Shown in pieces: positions 40,901 to 63,212 of a stretch of 64,000 nucleotides of DNA (the first letter of the stretch is position 1; every line of letters starts with the position of its first letter). The position numbers and the translations under genes are program-made. Below the pieces are notes generated by a model. It searched no databases and was not told the origin of the DNA. It saw only the letters and a list, made by a program, of their open reading frames with translations. Origin of the DNA: Owenia fusiformis (lineage: Eukaryota); contig CAIIXF020000001.1 of assembly GCA_903813345.2 (NCBI GenBank), positions 14,880,001 to 14,944,000 on the forward strand. Reading direction: 5' to 3'.

Positions 40901-43900
40901 TAGAGGGATGAGAGAGTACTGTATCTCTGAATCTACATGAATATAAAAAGAAGAATCATTTTCCTGATTTTTTAACAGTTAAGATCATATTTGTTTACTT
41001 GGAAAATGTACCAATTATTATAGGTATGTGTAAAATATGAAAATATACGCAGGCACTCTAGAATCACTTTTCTCATATTAAGTCAATGTTATTTCTCTCA
41101 AAGCAACGCATAGTCAATAGTCATTGAATTCTTTCACATTATCTGTTAACATGAAATATAAAGTATGGGGGTAAATTATGGAGTTCACTACCGTTAGTTA
41201 AGATGGGGGGGGGGGGGTGATTTTACCTTTTCCTCATCTGACTGTTGGATGTTGATGTAAACAACATTCTGAAGGAAATCAGATGCTTCTAGATATTTCT
41301 GAAAATAAATGTCAAATTAAAGCAATTCAGAAAACATAAAGTACAATATTTGAACATATTCACTGGAACACAGTCAATAAGAACTGTAAAACAAAACAGT
41401 TAATTTTGAATGTGACAAAGTAGATTTTTGAACTTTTTTTTAAAAATATTGTTATATAAATATTTCTGATTAAAGAATTGTGTGTAGCAATAATTTCTAA
41501 CTTAAAAACATTTAGTTTCCATTTTCCTAAATTGCTATATAATATGTTACATACCAACTGTAAGATGAGCACCCTGCAAGCTTTTATACTGGCCTCCATC
41601 TCAATAATACCAGCTTGCTTGATCTGAAATGAAGAAAAAAAGATAATACAAAAATGACCATTTATGTATGTTTTCATGGTGAATTGAATGTTTTATTCCA
41701 GCTGCTGTGGAGTTGTATGCCGAGTACTAGTGAGAGGGCTAAAGTTATCAAACACAAGGGATATGTCATAGTTGTCAAAATTAGGAAATAAATACTTTTC
41801 ATAAAAATTTCAGACAAAGACAAATTTTGGGCAAAGGGTGCAATTAAATGTGATTTACATCTTTTCGCAATGTAACTCCCACAGATCATGTGAATCCATT
41901 TAAAATCAAAGATTTTTGCATTCATATTTTGACAAGAACTAGGATAAGATGGGTTTTTGAATCCAGTTGAGAAGTGGAGGAAAGAACAGTGTGGTTTCTT
42001 ACCTTACTGTAGTGGACAATGGCCTCTTTGTATTTGTCTATGATATCATCAGGCATGAGACAGTTCTTGGTTTTAGCATTGAAGCTGTCCAAACCATTTT
42101 GGGACTGGAGTGGGTTGGAACTTCTAGCTCTTATTGAACCTGGAGAGAATCATATACAAGCACAGTAAGATTAAAGTCATTTTGTTAAAGATAATGCTGA
42201 TGCTTTGATGAGGTAAACTGAATTGAAACATACTGCTGTGTGCATATGATCCCTTAAGCTGTTTTCAGAATTTTGTTTTATTATGGCATTTTTATTGGAA
42301 ATATAATTTACTGATTTATGTGTATGTTAAACATAATGGGCTTCATGATTATCAATTGATGTTGGAGAATCATTCATTAGATTAAACTGGACATTATCAT
42401 ACATGAATTGCTTCACAAGTCTCATTGAAAAAAATTCTTGGAAATACAAAAATGTCTTACTAGTATTATTGAGCATGTCTTACCTGGTGAAAATGTTGCT
42501 TTTTGCATTGCTGATATACCACGTCTGGTTGAGAAAGACAAATTGCGGGAAAAGGATGTTGGACGTTCTGTTCTGGGGTAGTTCACAATAACAGAGGCTG
42601 CACAAAGACCTTCATATGCAGCTAGAAACAGAACAAAATGTCATATAAACCTTTAAATACTTTCCGTTAATATTCATTAAATTTCATCTTAGATAAACAA
42701 GTTAGGTGCATCTACTGAAAAATAAATATGGGCTATTCCAGCAATTTTAAGCAAGAATATGGGAGACAACATTCGAATTTTATATAAACATAATACTAGA
42801 AGCAATAGCATAGTTTCGTATAAACAGACTAGAGTGAAAGTTCTATCCAAATGTTCATCATTTTTTGTCATTAACTCAAAATCATATCAATTCATCTCAT
42901 CCAGTTGACCATCTCATCTCATTTCCTAAAATTGCAAGGATTTGTTTAAAATGTTTAATAAACAAAATATCCTGTACTAGTATATGTATGCTCATTGATA
43001 GCAACCTACCTGCAAGCCAGAGGGAGTCATTGACAGAGCGCAGAGAGTCTAGACATGTCTGATAGTGAAGAACAGCCTCAGCTGGGAGCCCTGCCAGGAG
43101 ACATAGGTCACCGAGGTACTTCCTTAAACGCCCTTGGCATTTCTTCCTGTAGGACCTAGAATTGGAAATCAGTTATACAAGAACAGTTAACAGTGTATTT
43201 GCACTTCATATTCAGAATAATATGACAAAGAATCAAAACATCTAATATGTATCACTTAATAAAGCATGTTTAAAAGGGATGTAGTTAATATAAACATGAA
43301 TACTACTATACCTGCTTTCTGTATCAATACCAACAAACTCCCTTCTCTCATAAGGTGCTGCAAGTAGTGGCATTCTCTCCAACTTCTCAGCAGATCGATC
43401 AAGCCTTTTGCTTTCAAGCACCCAGAATAAGGAAGATGCAAAATCTCGTATTTTGGCTTCAATATCAGAGCAGTCATCTACATGTGCATAGAACCAAACT
43501 TGTGTTTTTGAATTGATGCTACCACTTCCACTTGATGACCCTGTTGAGCTCCTTGACCTATCACCTGACCCTGAGTCTCCTTGACCTTGATCAGGGTCAT
43601 CTTGATTTTCCAAAGTGTCAAGGTCATCAGATGAATCAGATTTTCCTAATTGACTGAGTGGATGAGAAGTCACTTCCAAACGATCACTAGACACCTGTTT
43701 TTTATCATTCTTGTCATCAGTTGTAAAGTTTGAGTTTTCATTGATAATATCACTATCTGAATAACTTGTTTTAACATTTTCAGTAGTTTTTTGAAAACCA
43801 TTGTCATTGGTTTCAGTAGATATATTGCCACTGCTGTTGCTGACTGTTGATAAAGACCTTGGTTTAACTTCTAAATTCTCGTTTTCATTCTTGGGTAGAG

Positions 43901-44279
43901 CTTTTCCATCTTTTCCAAGACCAAATACCATGAGACGATGGTCAAACAATGTAGATTCATACTGCTTCTGAGTTCTATCATACATTGTGTACAAATATTC
44001 AAGTTCAGATTCAGAAGTACAATAGCCAACACAAATCAAGCCTAGAACTTTCCTATGGGCTTGAAAATCCCCCCAATCATTGTTATCTGGTGGGTATGCT
44101 TTCTTATAACGTAGCCATATGTTTCGAGCTTGTTCTTGAATTCTGACATGTTGTACTCTAGAGATGCGCTCATAGACTTTATTGAATGATCGTGATTTTA
44201 ATTGTGTCCCAATATGTTTAACAAGAACTAAGAGGTTCTGGTGATCTTCCACTTTCTGACTGTAATCTGGAAAACTCAT
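28936..44279 (-). CDS. TRAPPC9: Trafficking protein particle complex subunit 9 (NIBP/Trs120), 24 coding exons, ~1267 aa
   Basis: N-terminus [24 protein letters not shown] and motifs [61 protein letters not shown]. Exons: 44279-43312, 43155-43010, 42621-42484, 42139-42003, 41623-41555, 41298-41227, 40932-40734, 40314-40221, 39685-39597, 39299-39212, 38789-38629, 38315-38230, 37881-37755, 37469-37259, 36846-36761, 35914-35768, 35563-35514, 34279-34140, 33782-33675, 33092-32888, 31046-30953, 30578-30480, 29836-29715, 29103-28936. All introns are GT-AG with consistent phases; total 3804 nt. Confidence 0.93.
29971..30256. repeat. 286-bp apparently exact duplicate of 28760-29045 (TRAPPC9 last-exon 3' part plus proximal 3' UTR) inserted in an intron
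   Basis: Identical by eye from TCAACAGTCAACAATGAAC to GGCGGCCATTTTGAAGT. Sits within a ~85-bp tandem repeat spanning about 29890-30465. Confidence 0.9.
31253..31808. mobile_element. Kolobok-like MITE copy 2 (TTAA TSD, AGGGT termini)
   Basis: TTAA|AGGGTGACG...TATCGGAACCCT|TTAA. It is inserted into the right arm of an older hairpin MITE at about 31117-31823. Confidence 0.75.
32160..32847. mobile_element. TA-flanked MITE (Tc1/mariner-pogo type)
   Basis: TA|GGGGAAGTCGTCCTAT... pairs with ...TTAGGACCATTTCCCC|TA. Internal repeats of GTCCTAATTATCGCAC. Confidence 0.7.
34737..35463 (-). mobile_element. Internally deleted mariner element with C-terminal transposase remnant
   Basis: About 70-bp TIRs starting TA|CAGGGTGTCCAATAAATAAGGTGAAAG, with TA TSD. 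The minus-strand peptide [16 protein letters not shown]...LRGNKF resembles the mariner HPPYSPDLAPSDY motif. Confidence 0.88.
36290..36636 (+). repeat. Hairpin-type interspersed repeat, copy 1 (family shared with 60629-60890)
   Basis: Inverted arms around the spacer 36346-36393, followed by a unique tail that is also present at 60735-60890. Confidence 0.8.
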
Positions 44280-44564
44280 TGTGACCCTAAAAAGAACAAA
44301 TATACATTTTACAATAGAAACCAAACATATGATATAACATTTAATAAAAGTCTTAATTTTTTATACATGTATGAATTCAACTCTGGTGATCGATATTACC
44401 CAACTGCTCTTACGGTCTAAAAAGTCTACATGTAAATATTAGCTTTGGTACAAAAACATAACATAGTCCATTTCAATAGGGTTGTGACATCAACAAAACC
44501 TAAAAAAAAAAGCAATCAAAAGACCAATTTGCAATATTATATAAAAATTAGTGGTCAGACTCGC

Positions 44565-48009: not shown

Positions 48010-51000
48010 ATGACATCTGAAGACAAGGCAGAGTTACTAACTCAACTGCATGATTTCATATCTGCTGCAGAAGGCCAGCTGAGTCAAATACTTCACAGGG
48101 TAGGATGGGATAAAGAAACAACGTTCAAATCAAAGGTGAAGATAAACAAATTGAGTTAAGGCATTTTAATGATATAAACAAGTTTAACATAAATGTACAT
48201 ATACGAGGGTTGTCCCAGAAGTAATGCACTATATTCTCTAACTTCCTTTAATATGCTTCAATTCAGCTGAAATTTTGTGTATATTACAATTGAAGTTTTA
48301 TCTAGTATATCCTGAAGTTTCAGCATCAAACATTAATATTAAGTCTTAATATGGTTGCTATAGCAACATGGGGGTAGGGGCCGGCGGGGCAGGTACCAAC
48401 TTTTCTAATTATGAAAAGATCCAAAGTGTTATTTTATTAATATTTCTTTCTTTTAAATGATCAAAATGATTGGGAAATTGTTAAATTTATTCAGCTTGAT
48501 GTTAACCAAGTACAAATAATGACATTTAGCACTGTGATGTCATAATACCACAGTTCAATAGTCACAAATTCAAATACAGTCACGGTCAAGAAATTGCAAA
48601 AATGGCTGCGATTCTCATCTGATAACAGAAGGCCTTGCGTTTGGTGACATACATTGTAATTTCATACTTCACTTGGACTCACAGCCACACAAAACTTATG
48701 CTACCATGAAGAAATTATATAAGGAGTATATACCAGATAGAACTACAATTATGAGGTGGCAGAAGAGATGACTGGACCCAGGATAACAACTCAAATCATG
48801 GGAGGCAAAAACTCCACAAATCACAGTGGAAGAAATTGCCAAGAGTGTTTGACCTGACAGGCATCAAAAGTACATAACATGCAAAGGGCAATATTTTGAG
48901 AAAATGTGAAATGGGACGCTGTGCAATATACATTGATTTAAATCTAGGATGTGCTCATAGTAATTTAGTATCTTATAATGTAATTTTGAGCATACATCTT
49001 ATAGCTACACAAAATGGTATTTGTTGATTAATTATTTCATATTTTCAATTTTTTATTCCTTTTGACGTGACTGTATAACCTGCCCCACCCTACCCAAACA
49101 CACCAACTTAATTTTATTATAACATCAATATAGTTTTATAAGTCAACATGAAAATTTGTAGAATAATCAAAATGTCTCTAAGGAACATTTACTGAAAATT
49201 TCATGGAAAAATATCAATTATTGATAAAGTTAGAGCATATAGTGCATTACTTCTGGGACAACCCTCGTATATGTACTTCTCAGTAAATAGTCTTCTTAAC
49301 CGTAGGCTTTTATATTTTCACATGCCTTTAAGTTCAGTATGTGATATAATTAAGATTATTGGTTTCTTTTTTAATTTTATCACTTTTCAATATTCATTTT
49401 CAGTGAGCAATAGGAAATGTAGGAGTACAGTGTTTAGCCTTATACTGTATATGCATGGGAAGTCAGATTATAGTTTCAGAAATTCAAGAGAAACAGTAAT
49501 ATGATACTTTTAGGGTACAGAGCTGGTAGAATGTCCATATGATGCCTCACACAAGATGCCAGAGTGTTCTTTGAAGAGACACACTCAGACTTGCAAGCTG
49601 TTGAAAGAGGGCTGTAACAAGACAGATCTGGTATGGTAATTTTATATGAATTAAATGGAAATGAACATTAGCTAATTCAGGCTACATCTGTGGCACCTAT
49701 ATATTTGAAATTTTGTTAATAGGTTTGCTGTCAGTTAAAGTCCCTATCACTTGTGAATGGGAAAAATCATGAGAAATGGTCATATTTTGGCCTACTTGAT
49801 AGTACTTTGATCAGAATAGTGAAAATGTGATTTTTGGAGAACACTGATCTCATACTCATTTATTATATCACCATCAAGAAGTGGTGACATATTGTTATGG
49901 TGTCCGTTTTTTGTGGCGCGGGTGGTGGTTGGCAATCGGCGGTTGGCGGTTGGCATCTGTAACAAATTCTTAAAACTTCCAATAAATTAACAAATACTGT
50001 TTAGACTGACTTCAATTTTTTACAGTTAGTTAGTTAAATATTTATTATAGTGTCACAGGCTATACAATATATGAGAAATATGATTTGCAAAACAGGCAAT
50101 AGCCCCCAGCCGTCTCCGGCTTATGAGACACTTTATATCAATGAATTTACTGTGATTGTTGCAATTTCTTTGTTCGATTCAGTTCATTGATTGTCCAGTT
50201 TCGATATGATTAAATGGTGAGTCGTATGTTATTAGTTTTAATATCAAACTAATTACTGTGTACAAATCATTTACAAGTTTTCAGAAGTTCAAATCAGATT
50301 TAACATTTTAGATTTGACCTTCAGTGACCTTTTCAAGGTCAAAGAAATGTCAAAAGGTCTTTTTTCAACTTGCTTCAAATTGACCAAAATGTTTTTCAAA
50401 ATCATCTTCAAGTTATCAGAAGTTCAAATCTGACTTAAGATTTAAGATTTGACCTTCAATGACCCTTTCAAGGTCAAAGAAATGTCAAAAAGGTCTTTTT
50501 TCAACTTGCTTCAAATTTACCAATTTTTGATTTGAGATTTCACCTCCAATGACCTTCTCAAGGCCAAAGAAAGGTCAAAAAATATTTTTCAATTTGCTTC
50601 AAATTGACCAATTTTTTGTACAAATTCTCAAGAGTTCAAATTTGACTATAGATTTGACCTTCAATGTCATTCTCAAGGTCAAAAAGGTCTTTTTTCAACT
50701 TGCTGCAAATTGACCAATTTTTTCAAAATCATCTACAGAGTTCTCAGAAATTCAAATCTGACTTAGGATTGGACTAATAATATTGTGAGCAACTAGGTGG
50801 TGACATTTTGTCATGTTATGCCTTGTTCATGGTTACTGTTGTCAATTTTTACATAACAATGAGAATGATGTCACAGAACAGAAAACCAATTATTGATAAA
50901 AATCTTATGGGTATGTGTAATGTTTACCTAAATTTTTGTAAATGGTATGTTTGTTTTATTGTAGGATGTTGCTTTGTCCACCTCAGTGGATTTTTATGGA

Positions 51001-54000
51001 AAAGCCAGTAATGTTCACACTGTACATATAGGTGAGTACTTTTAGACATTGTGCTCTTGTTCCTTTTAAAAGATCTATTCTTGATACAATTGTAATACAA
51101 GACAATACAGTACCTGAAGTGAAGACTATTTTGTTCTAATTTAGAACATCAACAGAACATAAGAATAACTGAAAACATAATTGAGATTTTAGGAAGTTTT
51201 TTCTTATAACATGATGCATTTCTTATAAAAGAAGTATATATTAAAGTATTAATGAACAGTATTTTACATGTCCAATTAAACTGTAAAATGCTTTCAGATG
51301 GAGAGACCCAGGCATCCATAATCAGAGAGTCAGAATGGATACATGGAACGACAGGTAGCTCATCTTTATAAAAACTACTCTATGAAATAAATCACGCAAG
51401 ATTGATCATTCTTGAAAGTAGGAGATAAATCAATCAGTTTTCCCATTGAATTTTTAGTATTAGATTAAACTACAGTTTGGACCATAAACAAATGAGTCAT
51501 GGATTTGCTAAAGTGAGGATTTCCCAAGTTAGAAATAAGAGAAATTTTAAAAGGCCATACATCAGTGGATGAGAATATACCAAATGTAAAATATACAAAT
51601 TTTAGAGGATAGGGCATGTATCCTGACAATATTGGAGACTATGGGCTTTTAAACCACCATGGTTTGGAAATGGTGATAGAAAATCGTCCACTCATTTATT
51701 TATGGTCCAAACTATGTATATATAAAACACATTACAAATTGATGTTTATTTTATTGACTTGTTTCTCTTTCAGGGTAAGCACATACATGGGAGAAGTGCC
51801 CAAGAATGTACTTGTACTTGTATCCTATATATAAAATATCCTTTATTCAACAATTTGTTCTTGTTCACTATTTATTTATTTCTAATTTATTATAAGAATG
51901 AACATTGAATAGGTGGCCACTGGTGGCACAGATTGTGTATATTCCTTATTGATAATGTATCAAAAATGGGATGGTACCGATAGGGATCTATTCGTGTGTT
52001 AATCTCCCATTACTTCACATGGGTTGGAGCAAATTGTTGAGTCTGGTACTTGGCCATTTACCTAGTATCTTCCTAGTATGTAATATCTTATTTAATAAGT
52101 ATGCAAACACACTATATTCTAACCTTAAAAAAGTTTGAACTCTCTTTCCTGAAAAATTTCAAATCATGGTTGGTGAAATTCAATTGTCTTTTACAATATT
52201 GCCTTTTAAAGATGTCCACATCTTATATACAGTACTTTTGAATGGCTCACTAACAATTAAATGATAAAGTCTCTATGGTTCTATATTTAGGTGCAACAGC
52301 TGATGGTACACTTAAACCTGTTCCCCATAGCGCAGAGCAGGCCACAATAGAACTGACTAGAAGCCAACGTCTGGCCATGTATGACTATGTGGTCAACCAG
52401 GCCAAGGGTGCAAGAAAGACAACTAGCTGTTCAAATGAAGAACTGATGTTCTTAAAAGAGGAAGATGTAGGTAAGGAATCAGTTTAAGTAGTTAGTCTTA
52501 TTCATTGATTTAATTTCCAACATTTCATGATTGGCAGTTTGTAAAAGTTTCATATTATAATTGCATTTCTTCTTCCTTTCTTTTTGGAACAAATGTAATT
52601 GTGATAAGACCCAGTTTGTCTTTTTTAAATAACCCTGTCTAATCTGATCTGAACACTTATATGGTGTTGAAATTAGCAGCTATTCACATACAAGTTTCTT
52701 AATAAAGTATGTGAGTCAATGGGAGACATCAAAATCGGGTATCAAAATCTGAAGGGTATGTAGGCAAATCCATTTTGGTAGGAGCACTCTGTTTAGTTTG
52801 AAAACTCACCCTTTATTATTTTGTATCAGCACTATAGTCTGCAACTTTTTTGTTGACAGAGGTCTGCATATGGCAGTCGATGTCTGTAACAAATGGTAGG
52901 TAGTGCCATTTTGCATGTCAATGCCTTGTTTATGTTCTTAGTGCTAAATGTTTTGTTATGTTTCTAGCTAAACCCAGTGGCTCCCTGTCTTACAAAGAAC
53001 AAGAGGCAGCTATGAGAGATTTCAAAAGAAGAAGACAATCATATCGTGCCAAGAATGTCCACACAACTGGAAAGTCTCACACTGAAGTAAGTCCAGTCAT
53101 ACAATACTCCTTGTAGAACTCTGCATGTTCATGTCTTGTAAATATATATTTGTTTCCATTGCACATCTAGAATTTTCTACGACAGACTGGCGTTACTCTC
53201 TGGGTTACCATATTTGGTGATTTCCTGTAAACATGCGCCATGCTCAAGTTCTTTCTAAATTCTCCATACACAAATTAAAATGAATATCTGGGATGAAAAG
53301 AAAATTCAATATTTTTTCTAGATGGAGGTCATAATGTCAAGGTTCCTGGTCAAACATGGTTATTCAATTCAAGTTTTCCTGGACCTGAAAATGTTTGAAA
53401 GAGTTATTTTGTAATACTTTTCAAACAAATCAAAAATATATTTCCCCAATAAATAATACAATAAAAGACAGAATGGCAGTGTTCATCCAAATTTAGAACA
53501 AGCTATGGTAAAGAAGTATAAACACTCCGGACAAATAAACTGGAATTCAACTTTAATTTTTTTCAAAAATCCCAAAGCTATTTACATTATTGCATCATTT
53601 AATTGAGGATTCTATGTATGTCTGTAGAACATGCTGTGCTCAATATTTAAAACAAGAATATTTTCTTTGTTTAGATTTTACGTGAGGTTATTTCAAGTCA
53701 GTGTGAGGTCTTGGATAAAATTTGGAATAAAAAGGTAAAGAAAGAGCCGGATGATGGACCATGGACCCAACAGAGGGACCATGTAAAGGAAGAACCTAGG
53801 ACTTCCTCTAGGCACCAGAAGAGGGATCACCGATCAAGGGAAAGAACTAGAAATATGTCGCCAGAGCGAGCTCAGAGAAGGAGGTAAATTTTCTAATTTT
53901 GAGAGGGGAGTGGGTTTCGTTTATGGAACAAAAATTAGTGTATTTAGTACAAATAGTAAATTATTTCATTACTTGGACAGTCCACCTCTCTATCCTCATT

Positions 54001-54547
54001 TGCATTTTGTAATTTGAAAGAGAAACTATTTCCACCTCATTGTTGATTTAGTATTTTCGAAATGTTGTTTTGCAGATCCAGATCAAAGTCCAAGAAAAGG
54101 CACAGAAGAAGAAGTCATAGCAGGTTTGAAAATTTTAGCCTTGGTTTCTATTCAGTATATCCTTCATCCAGTGTATGGACACTTTGAAGTGAGAGCACGG
54201 GGGCTTTGAGTCATAAAAAAATTAATTACATTTCTTATGGGCGTTGATTCACATGCACGGTTCCTGTTTTGAATGATTGCCTCATTGATGTTCTGAATTA
54301 TATCATAAAAAATGAAAAAACTATAGAGAAATGGCTGAATGGTCTGAATATCAGTTTTCTAGTTTATCTGAACCATGCAATCATTTAGATAGAACTGAGA
54401 TCTGTGGCATATTCATATCCAACTATGTGGACATAAATAATATTTTCAATTTACAGATACAGTGAGGATTCAGATGAGGAACACCATAGAAGAGACCGCC
54501 ATAAGTCCAAAAAACACAAGCACAAATCCCGTAGAGATAGAGATTAG
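48010..54547 (+). CDS. SNRNP48: U11/U12 small nuclear ribonucleoprotein 48 kDa protein, 9 coding exons, ~337 aa
   Basis: CHHC zinc finger ECPYDASHKMPECSLKRHTQTC, motifs LTRSQRLAMYDYVV and RDFKRRRQSYRAKNVH, and an RS/basic tail. Exons: 48010-48135, 49514-49630, 50965-51031, 51298-51354, 52291-52470, 52968-53086, 53675-53883, 54076-54123, 54457-54547. Total 1014 nt with consistent phases. Confidence 0.93.
48204..49267 (+). mobile_element. Degenerate mariner element in SNRNP48 intron 1
   Basis: TIR TA|CGAGGGTTGTCCCAGAAGTAATGCACTATAT pairs with ATATAGTGCATTACTTCTGGGACAACCCTCG|TA. Internal HTH-like remnant TYATMKKLYKEYIPDRTTIMRWQKR near 48695-48770. Confidence 0.85.
49865..50830 (+). mobile_element. 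Helentron-associated (HINE-like) non-autonomous element with an internal ~140-bp tandem array
   Basis: 5' TCACCA..GTGGTGACAT hairpin, GGCGGTT microsatellite, about 4 tandem units at 50270-50770 and 3' end GGTGGTGACATTTTGTCATGTTATGCCTTGTT. Shorter relatives lie near 31855-31960, 33925-34045, 40040-40190 (minus strand) and 52875-52932. Confidence 0.55.
51758..51844 (+). promoter_or_regulatory. USSE-like splicing element (tandem U12 5' splice-site motifs) with an upstream alternative 3' splice site and poison micro-exon
   Basis: CTTGTTTCTCTTTCAG|G|GTAAGC at 51758-51780, then GTATCCTAT (51820-51828) and ATATCCTTT (51836-51844), in the intron after coding exon 4 of SNRNP48. Confidence 0.85.
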
Positions 54548-56191: not shown

Positions 56192-59100
56192 CTAGAGGTG
56201 AATAAAAGAGTGAATCAACACAATAACAGAGGAGATCAAAAACGAAGATGCAGCAATTGTAGAAGCACTGCTGCAGTAGTCTTTCCACCAAAGGTTCCTG
56301 AGGCGGGAGAGGGTCCCGTCTTCCTGCATTCGTAGAATAGCAAGATTAAACGTTGATACGTGGGGAGAACCTTTCGAGAAAGCCAGTCCGTACCCCCACG
56401 AATTAAGTGGATTACCTATAACTTTGACATCGCATGGTCGATGTTTTGACCAGTAGTCCGCCATGACGCTGTCCATGATAAAATAATAATTGCCTTGTCT
56501 CACTCGATCTACTCCCGTCGCTGCTTTATCAACAAACACAGATGGGTCCGAATTCATTTTGGCCCACATGCGTGCATAGAGACCATAGGTTGAATTTTGG
56601 AAAAACTGTTTCGTCAGACCATTTTGTATCGTGCCATATTTTGCCGTGTTTTGATTAGCGAGTTCCCCCACACTCTTGATTTCGAGAGGATTCTTGCCCA
56701 AGATGACAGTTCCAGTAGTCATGAAGGGCAAGGTGAAGTCCAAGACGTTCAGACGCGTCGATGTGATCGTCAGTGGCGCAGCTGCAAAGTCAGCGTCCTA
56801 GAATCGAAGCACAATGATGTAATTTCATTAATTCAATTTCCAATTACCTCATTTTGCTTAATTATTGCACAAGCTGTTTGCTGTAATTGTTTAATCTTAG
56901 CACCCAAGTTCCGTTCTTGCAAAATTACTTGTAGTAGACAAAGATGGATTCTAACAATTAGAACTAATTAAGTGATCCGACATGCCGGGGGGAATGGGCG
57001 AATGGTTCATATCACTACACCATTCTAGGTATCCACGAGGCAGATGTAATGTGTGGTTTCATATAGAACACGGTTATTTAACATAAATACGTTACTTACA
57101 TTATAAATATTATTATTGAATGATTTGAAGTGCATTACAGGATATATTCTGCTCTCGATATTCTGTATTGGCACTCGAAAAAAAGTGTTACAAATATATT
57201 GATAATTTCAGAATATACAGTTGGTGCTTGGCTTTAATGCCTTACTTTCATGTAATCATCTTTTTTGAACTAACATGAGAACCATTCATTAAAGTAAAAC
57301 CCGAAGAGAATTGGAATATTTTGCTTCATATAATTATTGATTTACATGTATATCCCATTGTATTGTGATATTGAGAAGCATCAGTGCCAGAGCGCATATT
57401 CTTTGACAAATACCACAGAGATATGTTCGACTAAAACTAAATCTTGATAGCCGAGAGCATGCAATGAGTACGAACGTGGTGTGATTATCAAATTAATATA
57501 ATATATAAGTAAACCGAATACTGGATAATGGAGTGAGAATTTTGGTAACAGGAGTCAACGGCCATGGGCAACGAATGTCGTGGCAATGTCTGCTTCTGCA
57601 ACTATATATATACGTGTGACTCCAAGATGGCCCCGAGTATTCTCCAAAGACTTTTTCATCCATTCCTGAGACATTAAGTCATCAAGTGGAACCAAACAGT
57701 TGCCAAAGAACATTTTCACTGTTCCACAACTAGTTACTTTGACGGAACGCCAATGTAACAAAATGGATGAACTTCCTGGTTACGAGTTCTTTTGTTTTCT
57801 CGATTTAAACCTACTTATAAGTCCAGTTGCAGATTGTAATTTGGCACAAAGCGAGAAAATATACAGTTGTCTAGCTTTAATGAATTTCTTCAATTTGGAA
57901 TTTGTTTGTAAATGAAGTTGCAATTCTTATATTAGTCCCTCGCTTTTGTTACATTGACGAAAGTCCGTTATATTACCAATGTATGTTACTTTGCCGACTT
58001 ACGTCAGTGTAACAAAAACGATGGTCTAAATGCATGAATTACAGCTTTATTTAAAAATCTGATTCCAAACCGAGAGCACTTCTTAAAGCTAGACTATATT
58101 TTCTAACTTTGTGCCAAATGATAATCTGCAACTTGACTTATAATTAGGTTTAAATCGAGAAAACAAAAAACTCGTATCCAAGAAGTTCGTCCATTTTGTT
58201 ACATTGACGTTCCGTCAAAGTAACTAGTTGTGGGACAGTAATTTTGAGAAAAAAACTCGGGACACAATTTTAGGTCACTTTACATCTTACCGGTCCCAAG
58301 ACTTCGCCGATCATCCCGGTCCACTTGCCATCACTTTTAGGAACCCCATAGGCGCCATCCTTAACGATAGATATATCAAAATTGATCCCTAGGCGATCTT
58401 TTAGTTCATCAAGCAGATCGGGAATAAAACCAGTATAGCGACCATTAACCAGTTGTTTTTCAACGAATGGCGGCTCCTGAAATATACCCATCCAACAATC
58501 TGATAAGAACGCCCTATTGTATATAAATTGAATGATTATCTTTCAAAAACGGCAATGGCTGCAACACTTGAAGCTTTCCGACAATAGAAAGAAAGCACTT
58601 TATCTAAAGAATTCATTTTGGCCTGTCTTGATTGCACATTCTGAATAAGAGAATAAAAGAGAATCAGACTTGCAAATATTATGATTTACATCTGGTAGTC
58701 TTATATCTATACCCTGGACCTTGGAGTAAATAACAGAGGGGGGGGGGGGGCAGAGTCTTGAAACAAGACCAATTTGGTAGTTATCGTATAGTTAAATTAA
58801 ACTCACATGAATTGTTGTCACTTTGAGTGTCTTTGATGTAACTGGAGTACATACTGCAAACAAAATAGAATTAACAATGATTGATTCTGTTATTCATTGT
58901 CTTGTTGCCAAGGAGATATACGTAAATATCCTAATAAACAAACAGTCCACCTGAGCTGGGCCATCATTTACTTTTAATTGGAAAAAGATTATATGTAGCT
59001 CATCCCACATTTCAGAGAAAAACTAGATAGATGCATATCCGAGAATTTGGAATTTGTATCAGTTTGATATCCGATGTGTTTGTGGAAACAGCCATTCGCC

Positions 59101-61777: not shown

Positions 61778-62537
61778 GACGAGAGGATAATATTGTCCCC
61801 CAGCAGAATATTCCAATTCTGAGTAAATTGAGGTCACATAACATGGTTCAAAATGACGTTATTTGCACTTTGGTGATTTATAACAGAGCCAAACGCAATT
61901 ACTTTACAATATATAATCACTAGCAATTCCCATTTATTTTTGGTGGGACAATAAATTGAATTTATTATCGTGTAACAGACAACTTATTTAAGTTTTAATC
62001 ATACCATAAATGCATTTTATTGTTCTATATATCACCGATAATAGTTTCCGTCCTTTCGCGCTTCCAACCCAGTCCTCCATCGACACGTCTACTTCGCCAA
62101 CGTTGTCTCCATGACCATTCAGTTATCGCGGCCAAGTTCCACCATACCCCTTGTCACACGAACGCTCCATTAATCCAGTTATAGAATTCCTCCAGAATCA
62201 TTATATAGGACGAGTTTAATCAGGTTTGCATGATTAATGTGAAACTGTCCCCTAAATGGATTAGACTAGTTTTAATACTATTGACTGATACCACGGCGTG
62301 AATAATAAACAACGTTGACAACTGAACAGCAAAAGAATGTGTATCCATCTCTAAGATCACTTTATGAATCTTTCGCTCCTTGTCGTTAATGTCTCCCACC
62401 GGTCGAAGGACTCTCATTATTGTTGTAATATCTGTGGTCCCTTGTCAGTTTTGTGTCAATCCAGCCCAGGTTCCTAAATATGAGAAACACCAAACACAAT
62501 TTAAAATTTAACAATCTCTAAGAAATCAGATCTTTTT

Positions 62538-63212
62538 ATCGTATGATCTGTAAAATGAAGCCCTTTGATTGGCCAATTCTTGTGCTGTACCAATCTGTAT
62601 TGCTACTGAGATTGTCCCCGTTGATCATCTCCGTCGCAATACAGAAGATATTGGTACGGAGGGGACAATCTCAGAAGCAATACAGAAGATCACACGATAA
62701 AAACGTTATAGAATGATTTGACGTGCAATACAGGATATATTCTGCTCTCTATATTCTTGGCGATAAGATCACACGATAAAAACGTTATTGAATGATTTGA
62801 AGTGCAGTACAGGATATATTCTGCTCGAGAAATTCTGTATTGGAACGAGACGAAGTCGAGTGCCAATACAGAATATCGAGACACTTCAAATCATTCAATA
62901 ACTTAATATATTATCGTATGATCTGTAAAATAAAGCCCTCTGATTGGTCAGTTCTTGTGCTGTACCAATCTGTATTGCTACTGAGATTGTCCCCGCTGAT
63001 CATCTCCGTCTCAATACGGAAAATATTGGTACGGAGGGGGCAATCTCAGTAGCAATACAGAGGATCACACGATAAAAACGTTATAGAATGATTTGAAGTG
63101 CAACACAGGATATATTCTGCTCTCTATATTCTGTATTGGCACTCGACTTCGTCTCGTAACAATACAGAATTTCCTGTATATCCTGTATTGCCCTTCAATT
63201 CATTCAATAACT
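62538..63212. repeat. Complex direct and inverted repeat cluster (hairpin family, two ~220-bp direct copies)
   Basis: 62538-62757 is repeated at 62913-63132, with internal hairpins. A related fragment lies at 57113-57180. Confidence 0.8.

Follow-up and report, generated by a model that had tools for sequence, protein, structure and literature searches.

We analyzed a 64,000-nucleotide (nt) stretch of the Owenia fusiformis genome (contig CAIIXF020000001.1, positions 14,880,001 to 14,944,000, forward strand), here called the window, whose positions are counted from its first letter, and in it the fourth intron of SNRNP48, the gene for the U11-48K protein. Our results demonstrate that this intron contains a strong U2-type acceptor that is used in vivo and is followed by a single G, a near-consensus U2-type donor, and two tandem U12-type 5' splice-site motifs. 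The transcript data support two premature-stop isoforms as products of this acceptor, one with an extended exon 5 and one with a 1-nt exon. Taken together, the evidence makes it probable that the intron houses a U11 small nuclear ribonucleoprotein (snRNP)-binding splicing enhancer (USSE) acting in a feedback loop, with a poison exon that consists of one nucleotide.

RESULTS

Identity of the host gene

The host gene is the O. fusiformis orthologue of SNRNP48 (U11-48K). Its nine exons, when joined in order, translate exactly to a 337-amino-acid (aa) O. fusiformis protein of the CHHC U11-48K type (P0001; retrieved via exon 5, 100% identity). Exon 2 corresponds to the Pfam domain zf-U11-48K (E = 3.4e-10 in a Pfam search), and the entire 337-aa protein can be aligned with human U11/U12 48K (chain 8r7n_F, E = 1.1e-36), a chain that comes from solved structures of the minor spliceosome. 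Intron 4 is 936 nt long and lies in phase 1, and the acceptor that leads into exon 5 appears weak by eye. The features of the gene and of the element are listed in Table 1.

Table 1. Features of SNRNP48 and of the element in its fourth intron, in window coordinates
Feature	Position	Strand	Remarks
SNRNP48 (U11-48K) coding sequence	48010-54547	+	9 exons, 8 GT-AG introns; script-built model
Exons 1 to 5	48010-48135, 49514-49630, 50965-51031, 51298-51354, 52291-52470	+	
Exons 6 to 9	52968-53086, 53675-53883, 54076-54123, 54457-54547	+	
Exon 4	51298-51354	+	Ends in ACGACAG; donor CAG/GTAGCT, weak by eye; phase 1
Alternative U2-type acceptor	51745-51773	+	ttgtttctctttcAG; pyrimidine tract, CAG ending at 51773, AG at 51772-51773
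Single G, proposed 1-nt poison exon	51774	+	Between AG 51772-51773 and GTAAGC
U2-type donor GTAAGC	51775-51780	+	Near consensus; use inferred from the product with the extra G
TAA stop	51776-51778	+	In frame when the intron past the alternative acceptor is retained
GGG run	51789-51791	+	Between donor and tandem motifs; sequence only
Tandem U12-type 5' splice-site motifs, candidate USSE	51820-51844	+	GTATCCTAT at 51820-51828, ATATCCTTT at 51836-51844
Second half of intron 4	51775-52290	+	Retained in the isoform with extended exon 5
Exon 5	52291-52470	+	Starts with GTGCAACAGCTGA

Anatomy of the element in intron 4

A first-pass annotation of the window had described the AG, the single G, the GTAAGC donor, and the two U12-type motifs, and all of these were confirmed base for base. 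The motifs, which had been placed about 47 nt beyond the AG, begin 46 nt past the acceptor cut (51773/51774), and their starts are 16 nt apart. Judged by sequence, none of the other SNRNP48 acceptors equals the internal one in the pyrimidine richness of its tract, and TTGAC, with its A at 51757, is a candidate for the branch site of the internal acceptor. Since exon 4 and this acceptor share the ending CAG, the first splice leaves the upstream context of the GTAAGC donor, AGG, unchanged.

The two premature stops follow from the reading frames, exactly as the annotation had claimed. Retention of the intron past the internal acceptor gives ACA GGG TAA, whereas the addition of the single G alone gives ACA GGG TGC AAC AGC TGA, with the TGA at 52301-52303 located 167 nt ahead of the next exon junction. 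The annotation had also recognized a USSE-type element in SNRNP48, and this assignment agrees with both the identity of the gene and the published anatomy of such elements, in which tandem motifs lie downstream of a U2-type acceptor.

Folding of the RNA from 51740 to 51880 revealed nothing notable (z = +0.77, no better than shuffled sequence), which fits with single-stranded binding sites, and an Rfam scan of the window gave 0 matches. As for the GGG run between the donor and the motifs, the title of Turunen et al. 2013 leads us to speculate that it might be tied to hnRNP H.

Transcripts made with the internal acceptor

Transcript data for the region 50900-52600 were available from three stranded raw-read RNA sequencing (RNA-seq) runs with the same species label (X13, X14, and X15) and, from a different study, as assembled contigs (Logan; X1). 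Although X1 was labelled as RNA only as a guess, spliced joints are present in it, and it therefore does hold RNA. The counts for each joint are given in Table 2.

Table 2. Exon joints of SNRNP48 in the four RNA data sets (reads for X13 to X15, contig depth for X1)
Joint	X13	X14	X15	X1
Exon 3 to exon 4	30	14	23	1272
Exon 4 to exon 5, productive (51354 to 52291)	20	15	12	None listed
Exon 4 to 51774, GT..AG (51354 to 51774)	4	1	2	187.8
Exon 4, extra G, exon 5	1	1	0	195.4

The internal acceptor is in use. The joint from exon 4 to 51774, recorded by the alignment as 51351 to 51771 with the cut shifted by +3, was found in seven raw reads spread over all three runs and in a contig of the fourth data set, and the message in which exon 4 and exon 5 are separated by one extra G was found in two raw reads from two runs as well as in a contig. 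Both products had been proposed as RNA-seq checks of the first-pass annotation. A total of 56 junction reads leave exon 4 in the three raw-read runs: 47 are productive, 7 lead to 51774, and 2 carry the extra G. The alternative acceptor was thus used in 9 of the 56, and all nine of these reads have the orientation of the gene.

The isoform that retains the second half of the intron is visible in its own right. A 521-nt contig (depth 187.8) spans the joint between exon 4 and 51774 and then extends as far as 52267 with no further splice, and a second contig (depth 101.4) crosses the border between intron and exon 5 (52290/52291) without a splice. In the raw reads, sense depth per bin after the acceptor (51775 to 52290) was 0.5 to 4.5 in X13 and 0 to 2 in X14 and X15; steady sense coverage within intron 4 is seen only past the acceptor, and sense depth in intron 3 is 0 in all three runs. 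By read count, the retained-intron form is the commoner visible product of the internal acceptor. The annotation had named the 1-nt poison exon as the output of the element and had mentioned the retained form merely as a read-through; the first part stood, in that the message with the extra G was seen, but the retained form is the more frequent of the two.

Origin of the extra G

To obtain the extra G in one step, a direct splice would need an intron of the type GT..TA or TA..AG. Because such a splice is implausible, the first-step product is seen, and a consensus donor comes next, two successive splices through G51774 are the simplest route. A single base cannot accommodate the acceptor and donor complexes together, and the route to the message with the extra G would therefore have to be sequential; the same one-base argument is made for an Arabidopsis 1-nt exon in the account given in PMC4674806. 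With regard to the reverse order, in which the downstream intron is removed first, the listed joints include none that links 51774 to 52291 with intron sequence ahead of it, and no read supports this order. The joint made by the GTAAGC donor cannot itself be told apart in reads, as a single base separates both cuts.

Alternatively, the extra G could be due to genomic variation, for example, an allele with a different number of Gs at the donor of exon 4 or a second, diverged copy of the gene, or to an artifact of assembly or sequencing, but this strikes us as quite improbable. In favor of this alternative, the extra G occurs in only two raw reads, many letters differ in the RNA runs of this highly polymorphic population, and a second gene copy is possible, but the message is present in two independent studies, including a contig at a depth of 195, and no insertion at the exon 4 boundary (51354/51355) is listed among contigs or reads. 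The reference window is also without the extra G. Moreover, the first-step product from exon 4 to 51774 is directly observed, and a consensus donor follows the base after this joint. It would also be unexpected for both data sets to contain a frameshift allele of a splicing gene that is essential and present in a single copy.

Occurrence of the tandem motifs

Single RTATCCTW motifs are not enriched in the AT-rich window (15 observed versus 11.7 expected), and a single one is thus no commoner than chance. In addition, the acceptor at 51773 has the best pyrimidine tract of the gene, and the exon 4 donor and the productive exon 5 acceptor are weak. One could therefore regard the acceptor as a strong cryptic site that is used at background level, with tandem motifs that have no function and no U11-dependent feedback. 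The pair, however, speaks against this explanation. On both strands of the 64-kb window, this is the only pair of RTATCCT motifs within 40 nt, and in windows simulated with a first-order Markov model, any such pair appeared in 17 of 300 and a pair with a pyrimidine-rich YAG at most 80 nt upstream in 1 of 300. Furthermore, USSEs are known from two genes, of which SNRNP48, the host of this element, is one, and both Owenia isoforms mirror those described for the human gene. A cryptic site with functionless motifs is, in our view, unlikely.

The same motifs could in principle be real minor-spliceosome donors of an alternative U12-type intron, with no enhancer involved. Both fit the U12-type donor consensus, and a weak branch-site-like sequence, ACCTTAAA, is found at 52122-52129, 12 nt ahead of an AC. 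Nevertheless, no joint that starts at either motif (51819/51820 or 51835/51836) is listed in the four runs, although the low depth at this position (0.25 to 4.5 reads per bin) makes this a weak test, and the roughly 30 nt adjoining the acceptor of exon 5 contain no good U12 branch site; the CTAAC at 52250-52254 belongs to the U2 type. In the known USSE system, the motifs are likewise described as unused as donors. With zero joints and no suitable branch site, we rejected the motifs as U12 donors, an explanation that we find hardly credible.

Points that weigh against a USSE with a 1-nt poison exon

Several observations count against the proposed feedback element and its one-base exon. The form with the extra G is supported by only two raw reads and one contig, and its joint is recorded as 51354 to 52290, with one letter that fits either side and is marked as "between: not known." In X1, the productive joint between exons 4 and 5 is unlisted, a hole that proves nothing, and this data set consequently gives no clean ratio. 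The runs examined were all of RNA, and an infrequent allele that carries one more G at the donor of exon 4 could in principle account for this form, although no insertion at this boundary is listed. No truncated proteins of less than 185 aa matching residues 1 to 130 were found in the protein collection. By sequence, the internal acceptor outranks the productive acceptor of exon 5 and might act without the help of U11, and the first motif, GTATCCTAT, deviates from the U12-type consensus at one position.

Conservation outside Owenia was sought in metagenome contigs with a pattern of CAGGGTRAG followed, after 30 to 50 nt, by tandem RTATCCT; none of the 12 loci retrieved lies beside SNRNP48 exons. 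We took these loci to be chance matches, as they lack both a tblastn match to the protein and a pyrimidine tract ahead of the AG. In a comparison within the species, the X1 haplotype showed 0 listed differences in 51771-51868 (98 nt) versus at least 8 in 51869-52267 (399 nt), a difference that is not significant.

Other observations in the gene and the window

The stretch of intron 4 from 51470 to 51754, upstream of the alternative acceptor, is a dispersed repeat in which RNA is found on both strands at exon-like depth. The reads over it are mostly mismatched and have loose ends that run into unrelated sequence, and one joint (51588/51690) is of the "opposite strands" kind. The mismatches and loose ends indicate that most of these reads derive from other genomic copies. 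The repeat appears to end about 20 to 60 nt short of the pyrimidine tract of the acceptor. A third GTATCCT, isolated, is present within the repeat at 51618-51624, about 150 nt upstream of the alternative acceptor, and no joint is associated with it.

At the end of exon 3 (51027-51031), five reads of X13 and one of X14 have altered letters (joint 51027 to 51297, with three letters between); this reads as a haplotype with Ile103 changed to Phe, not as an alternative splice form. The RNA runs differ densely from the reference within exons, for example, at 50982-50988, and some of the changes, among them 52413 A>G and 52421 A>C, are close to fixation in every run.

Elsewhere in the window, a 372-aa open frame on the minus strand (43242-44360) weakly matches the N-terminal region of TRAPPC9/Trs120 (E = 2.7e-4, which misses the Pfam cutoff) and is probably a large exon of a neighboring, divergently oriented gene. 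Downstream of SNRNP48, also on the minus strand, are ionotropic glutamate receptor-like exons at 56192-56797 and 58270-58542, with matches to Lig_chan-Glu_bd (E = 2.4e-8) and SBP_bac_3 (E = 4.6e-8). A 222-nt unit is duplicated at 62536-63132 (spacing of 375 nt, 94% identity), and two inverted-repeat pairs of 74 to 80 nt are found at 57718-58239 in the intron of the receptor gene. Both are probably remnants of transposons.

DISCUSSION

Our results are consistent with a mechanism in which the abundance of the minor spliceosome would be sensed by the pre-mRNA of one of its own proteins. When the U11/U12 snRNP is plentiful, it would bind the two U12-type motifs and, through exon-definition contact, bring the major spliceosome to the acceptor that lies 46 nt ahead of them, so that exon 4 would be spliced to G51774 in place of exon 5. 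Two outputs would then be possible. If the remaining intron is retained, an extended exon 5 would result, with a TAA two codons past the joint and the U11 sites still aboard. If U1 instead takes the GTAAGC donor one base past the joint, the remainder would be spliced to exon 5, leaving only G51774 behind; the resulting +1 frameshift would stop at the TGA in exon 5, and the message would be an expected target of nonsense-mediated decay (NMD). This second output would be made by two successive splices, in the manner of a recursive splice site that is shifted by one base. The binding of U11, the logic of the feedback, and the fate of the products, NMD or retention in the nucleus, are predicted here by homology with the human gene.

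The closest known system is the USSE of vertebrate SNRNP48 (Verbeeren et al. 2010; Turunen et al. 2013; Niemela et al. 2015). As described in PMC5473595 and in reviews, a USSE consists of tandem U12-type 5' splice sites that are bound by U11, do not serve as donors, and activate an upstream U2-type acceptor by exon definition. According to PMC5473595, the human gene has two outputs, an NMD-degraded transcript with a poison cassette "mini-exon" and a long isoform, kept in the nucleus, with an exon extended by USSE-directed intron retention. The element is reported to be conserved across animals and plants and to be absent in Diptera, and the distance between acceptor and USSE is described in a review as being under selection.

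O. fusiformis shares with the vertebrate system, as far as the latter is described, the gene, the intron (intron 4), tandem motifs in a noncoding stretch downstream of a U2-type acceptor that is used in vivo, a tiny frame-shifting cassette exon, an extended exon 5 that keeps the USSE, and motifs that are not seen to act as donors. It differs in that its cassette exon is a single base, whereas the mini-exon of human SNRNP48 is reportedly 8 nt long, and in that its acceptor is strong by sequence. Functional distances between acceptor and USSE are said to range from 25 to 50 nt, and the 46 nt in O. fusiformis fit such a short spacing. With an exon of one base, the signals of acceptor and donor overlap, and sequential splicing would thus be obligatory in O. 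fusiformis.

The second gene with such an enhancer, RNPC3 (U11/U12-65K), is described as having the same kind of element and the same feedback logic on a minor-spliceosome protein as would apply to Owenia SNRNP48. Unlike in Owenia, the acceptor that is activated in RNPC3 lengthens the 3' untranslated region and the message is held in the nucleus, with no frameshift or mini-exon.

The Owenia site also resembles the recursive splice sites, or ratchet points (AG/GTAAGT), of long animal introns, the definition of which is helped by a downstream element that resembles a 5' splice site. In both, a consensus donor comes directly after a pyrimidine tract and an AG, and the first splice makes the substrate of the second. 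Recursive sites, however, leave nothing in the mRNA, whereas the Owenia donor is shifted by one base and leaves a 1-nt scar that destroys the frame. In addition, the defining element of recursive sites is bound by U1, while the downstream element in Owenia would bind U11.

Exons of one base are known from other nuclear genes. Those of plant APC11 and VPS55 are spliced, and sequential intron removal is the route proposed for them in the accounts given in PMC4674806 and PMC8831610; recursive splicing is named in the Discussion of the former. As described, these exons and that of Fusarium CYP621A have in common with the Owenia exon the length of one base, the nuclear location, the GT-AG flanks, and a strong donor of the GTRAG type. 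The plant and Fusarium exons are constitutive, keep the frame, and are not from animals, whereas the Owenia exon is alternative and breaks the frame.

The USSE feedback loop itself is already known, and the one-base poison exon is the new twist. Full-text literature searches for 1-nt exons returned nuclear cases in plants (APC11 and VPS55) and Fusarium and mitochondrial cases in placozoans and fungi, and no animal nuclear case. No report of a 1-nt poison exon was found in the literature searched, although the primary USSE papers may list the sizes of invertebrate mini-exons. Searches for SNRNP48 together with recursive splicing or a poison exon returned nothing relevant, and no paper was found for O. 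fusiformis together with the minor spliceosome. This raises the possibility that Owenia SNRNP48 contains the first nuclear 1-nt exon of an animal and the first regulated 1-nt poison exon anywhere, in the form of a U11-armed recursive site, shifted by one base, that acts as a frameshift switch to set the level of a minor-spliceosome protein; we consider the arguments for and against this fuller claim to be evenly balanced.

A one-base exon calls for caution in annotation and read mapping. Since intron 4 begins with a G and also has a G immediately ahead of exon 5, the extra base fits at either border, and an aligner would present it as an unusual non-canonical junction or as an insertion or deletion. 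The site also offers a natural substrate in an animal for studying how the spliceosome re-uses a freshly made joint. One base is the smallest size possible for a cassette exon, and a switch built on it would need no exon body, only an acceptor and a donor that overlap. To our knowledge, no loop other than that of the USSE has been documented through which the minor spliceosome controls its own level by directing the major spliceosome. The presence of a probable USSE in an early-branching annelid, together with both of the unproductive outputs of the human gene, supports the view that the whole circuit, and not the motif alone, is ancient in animals.

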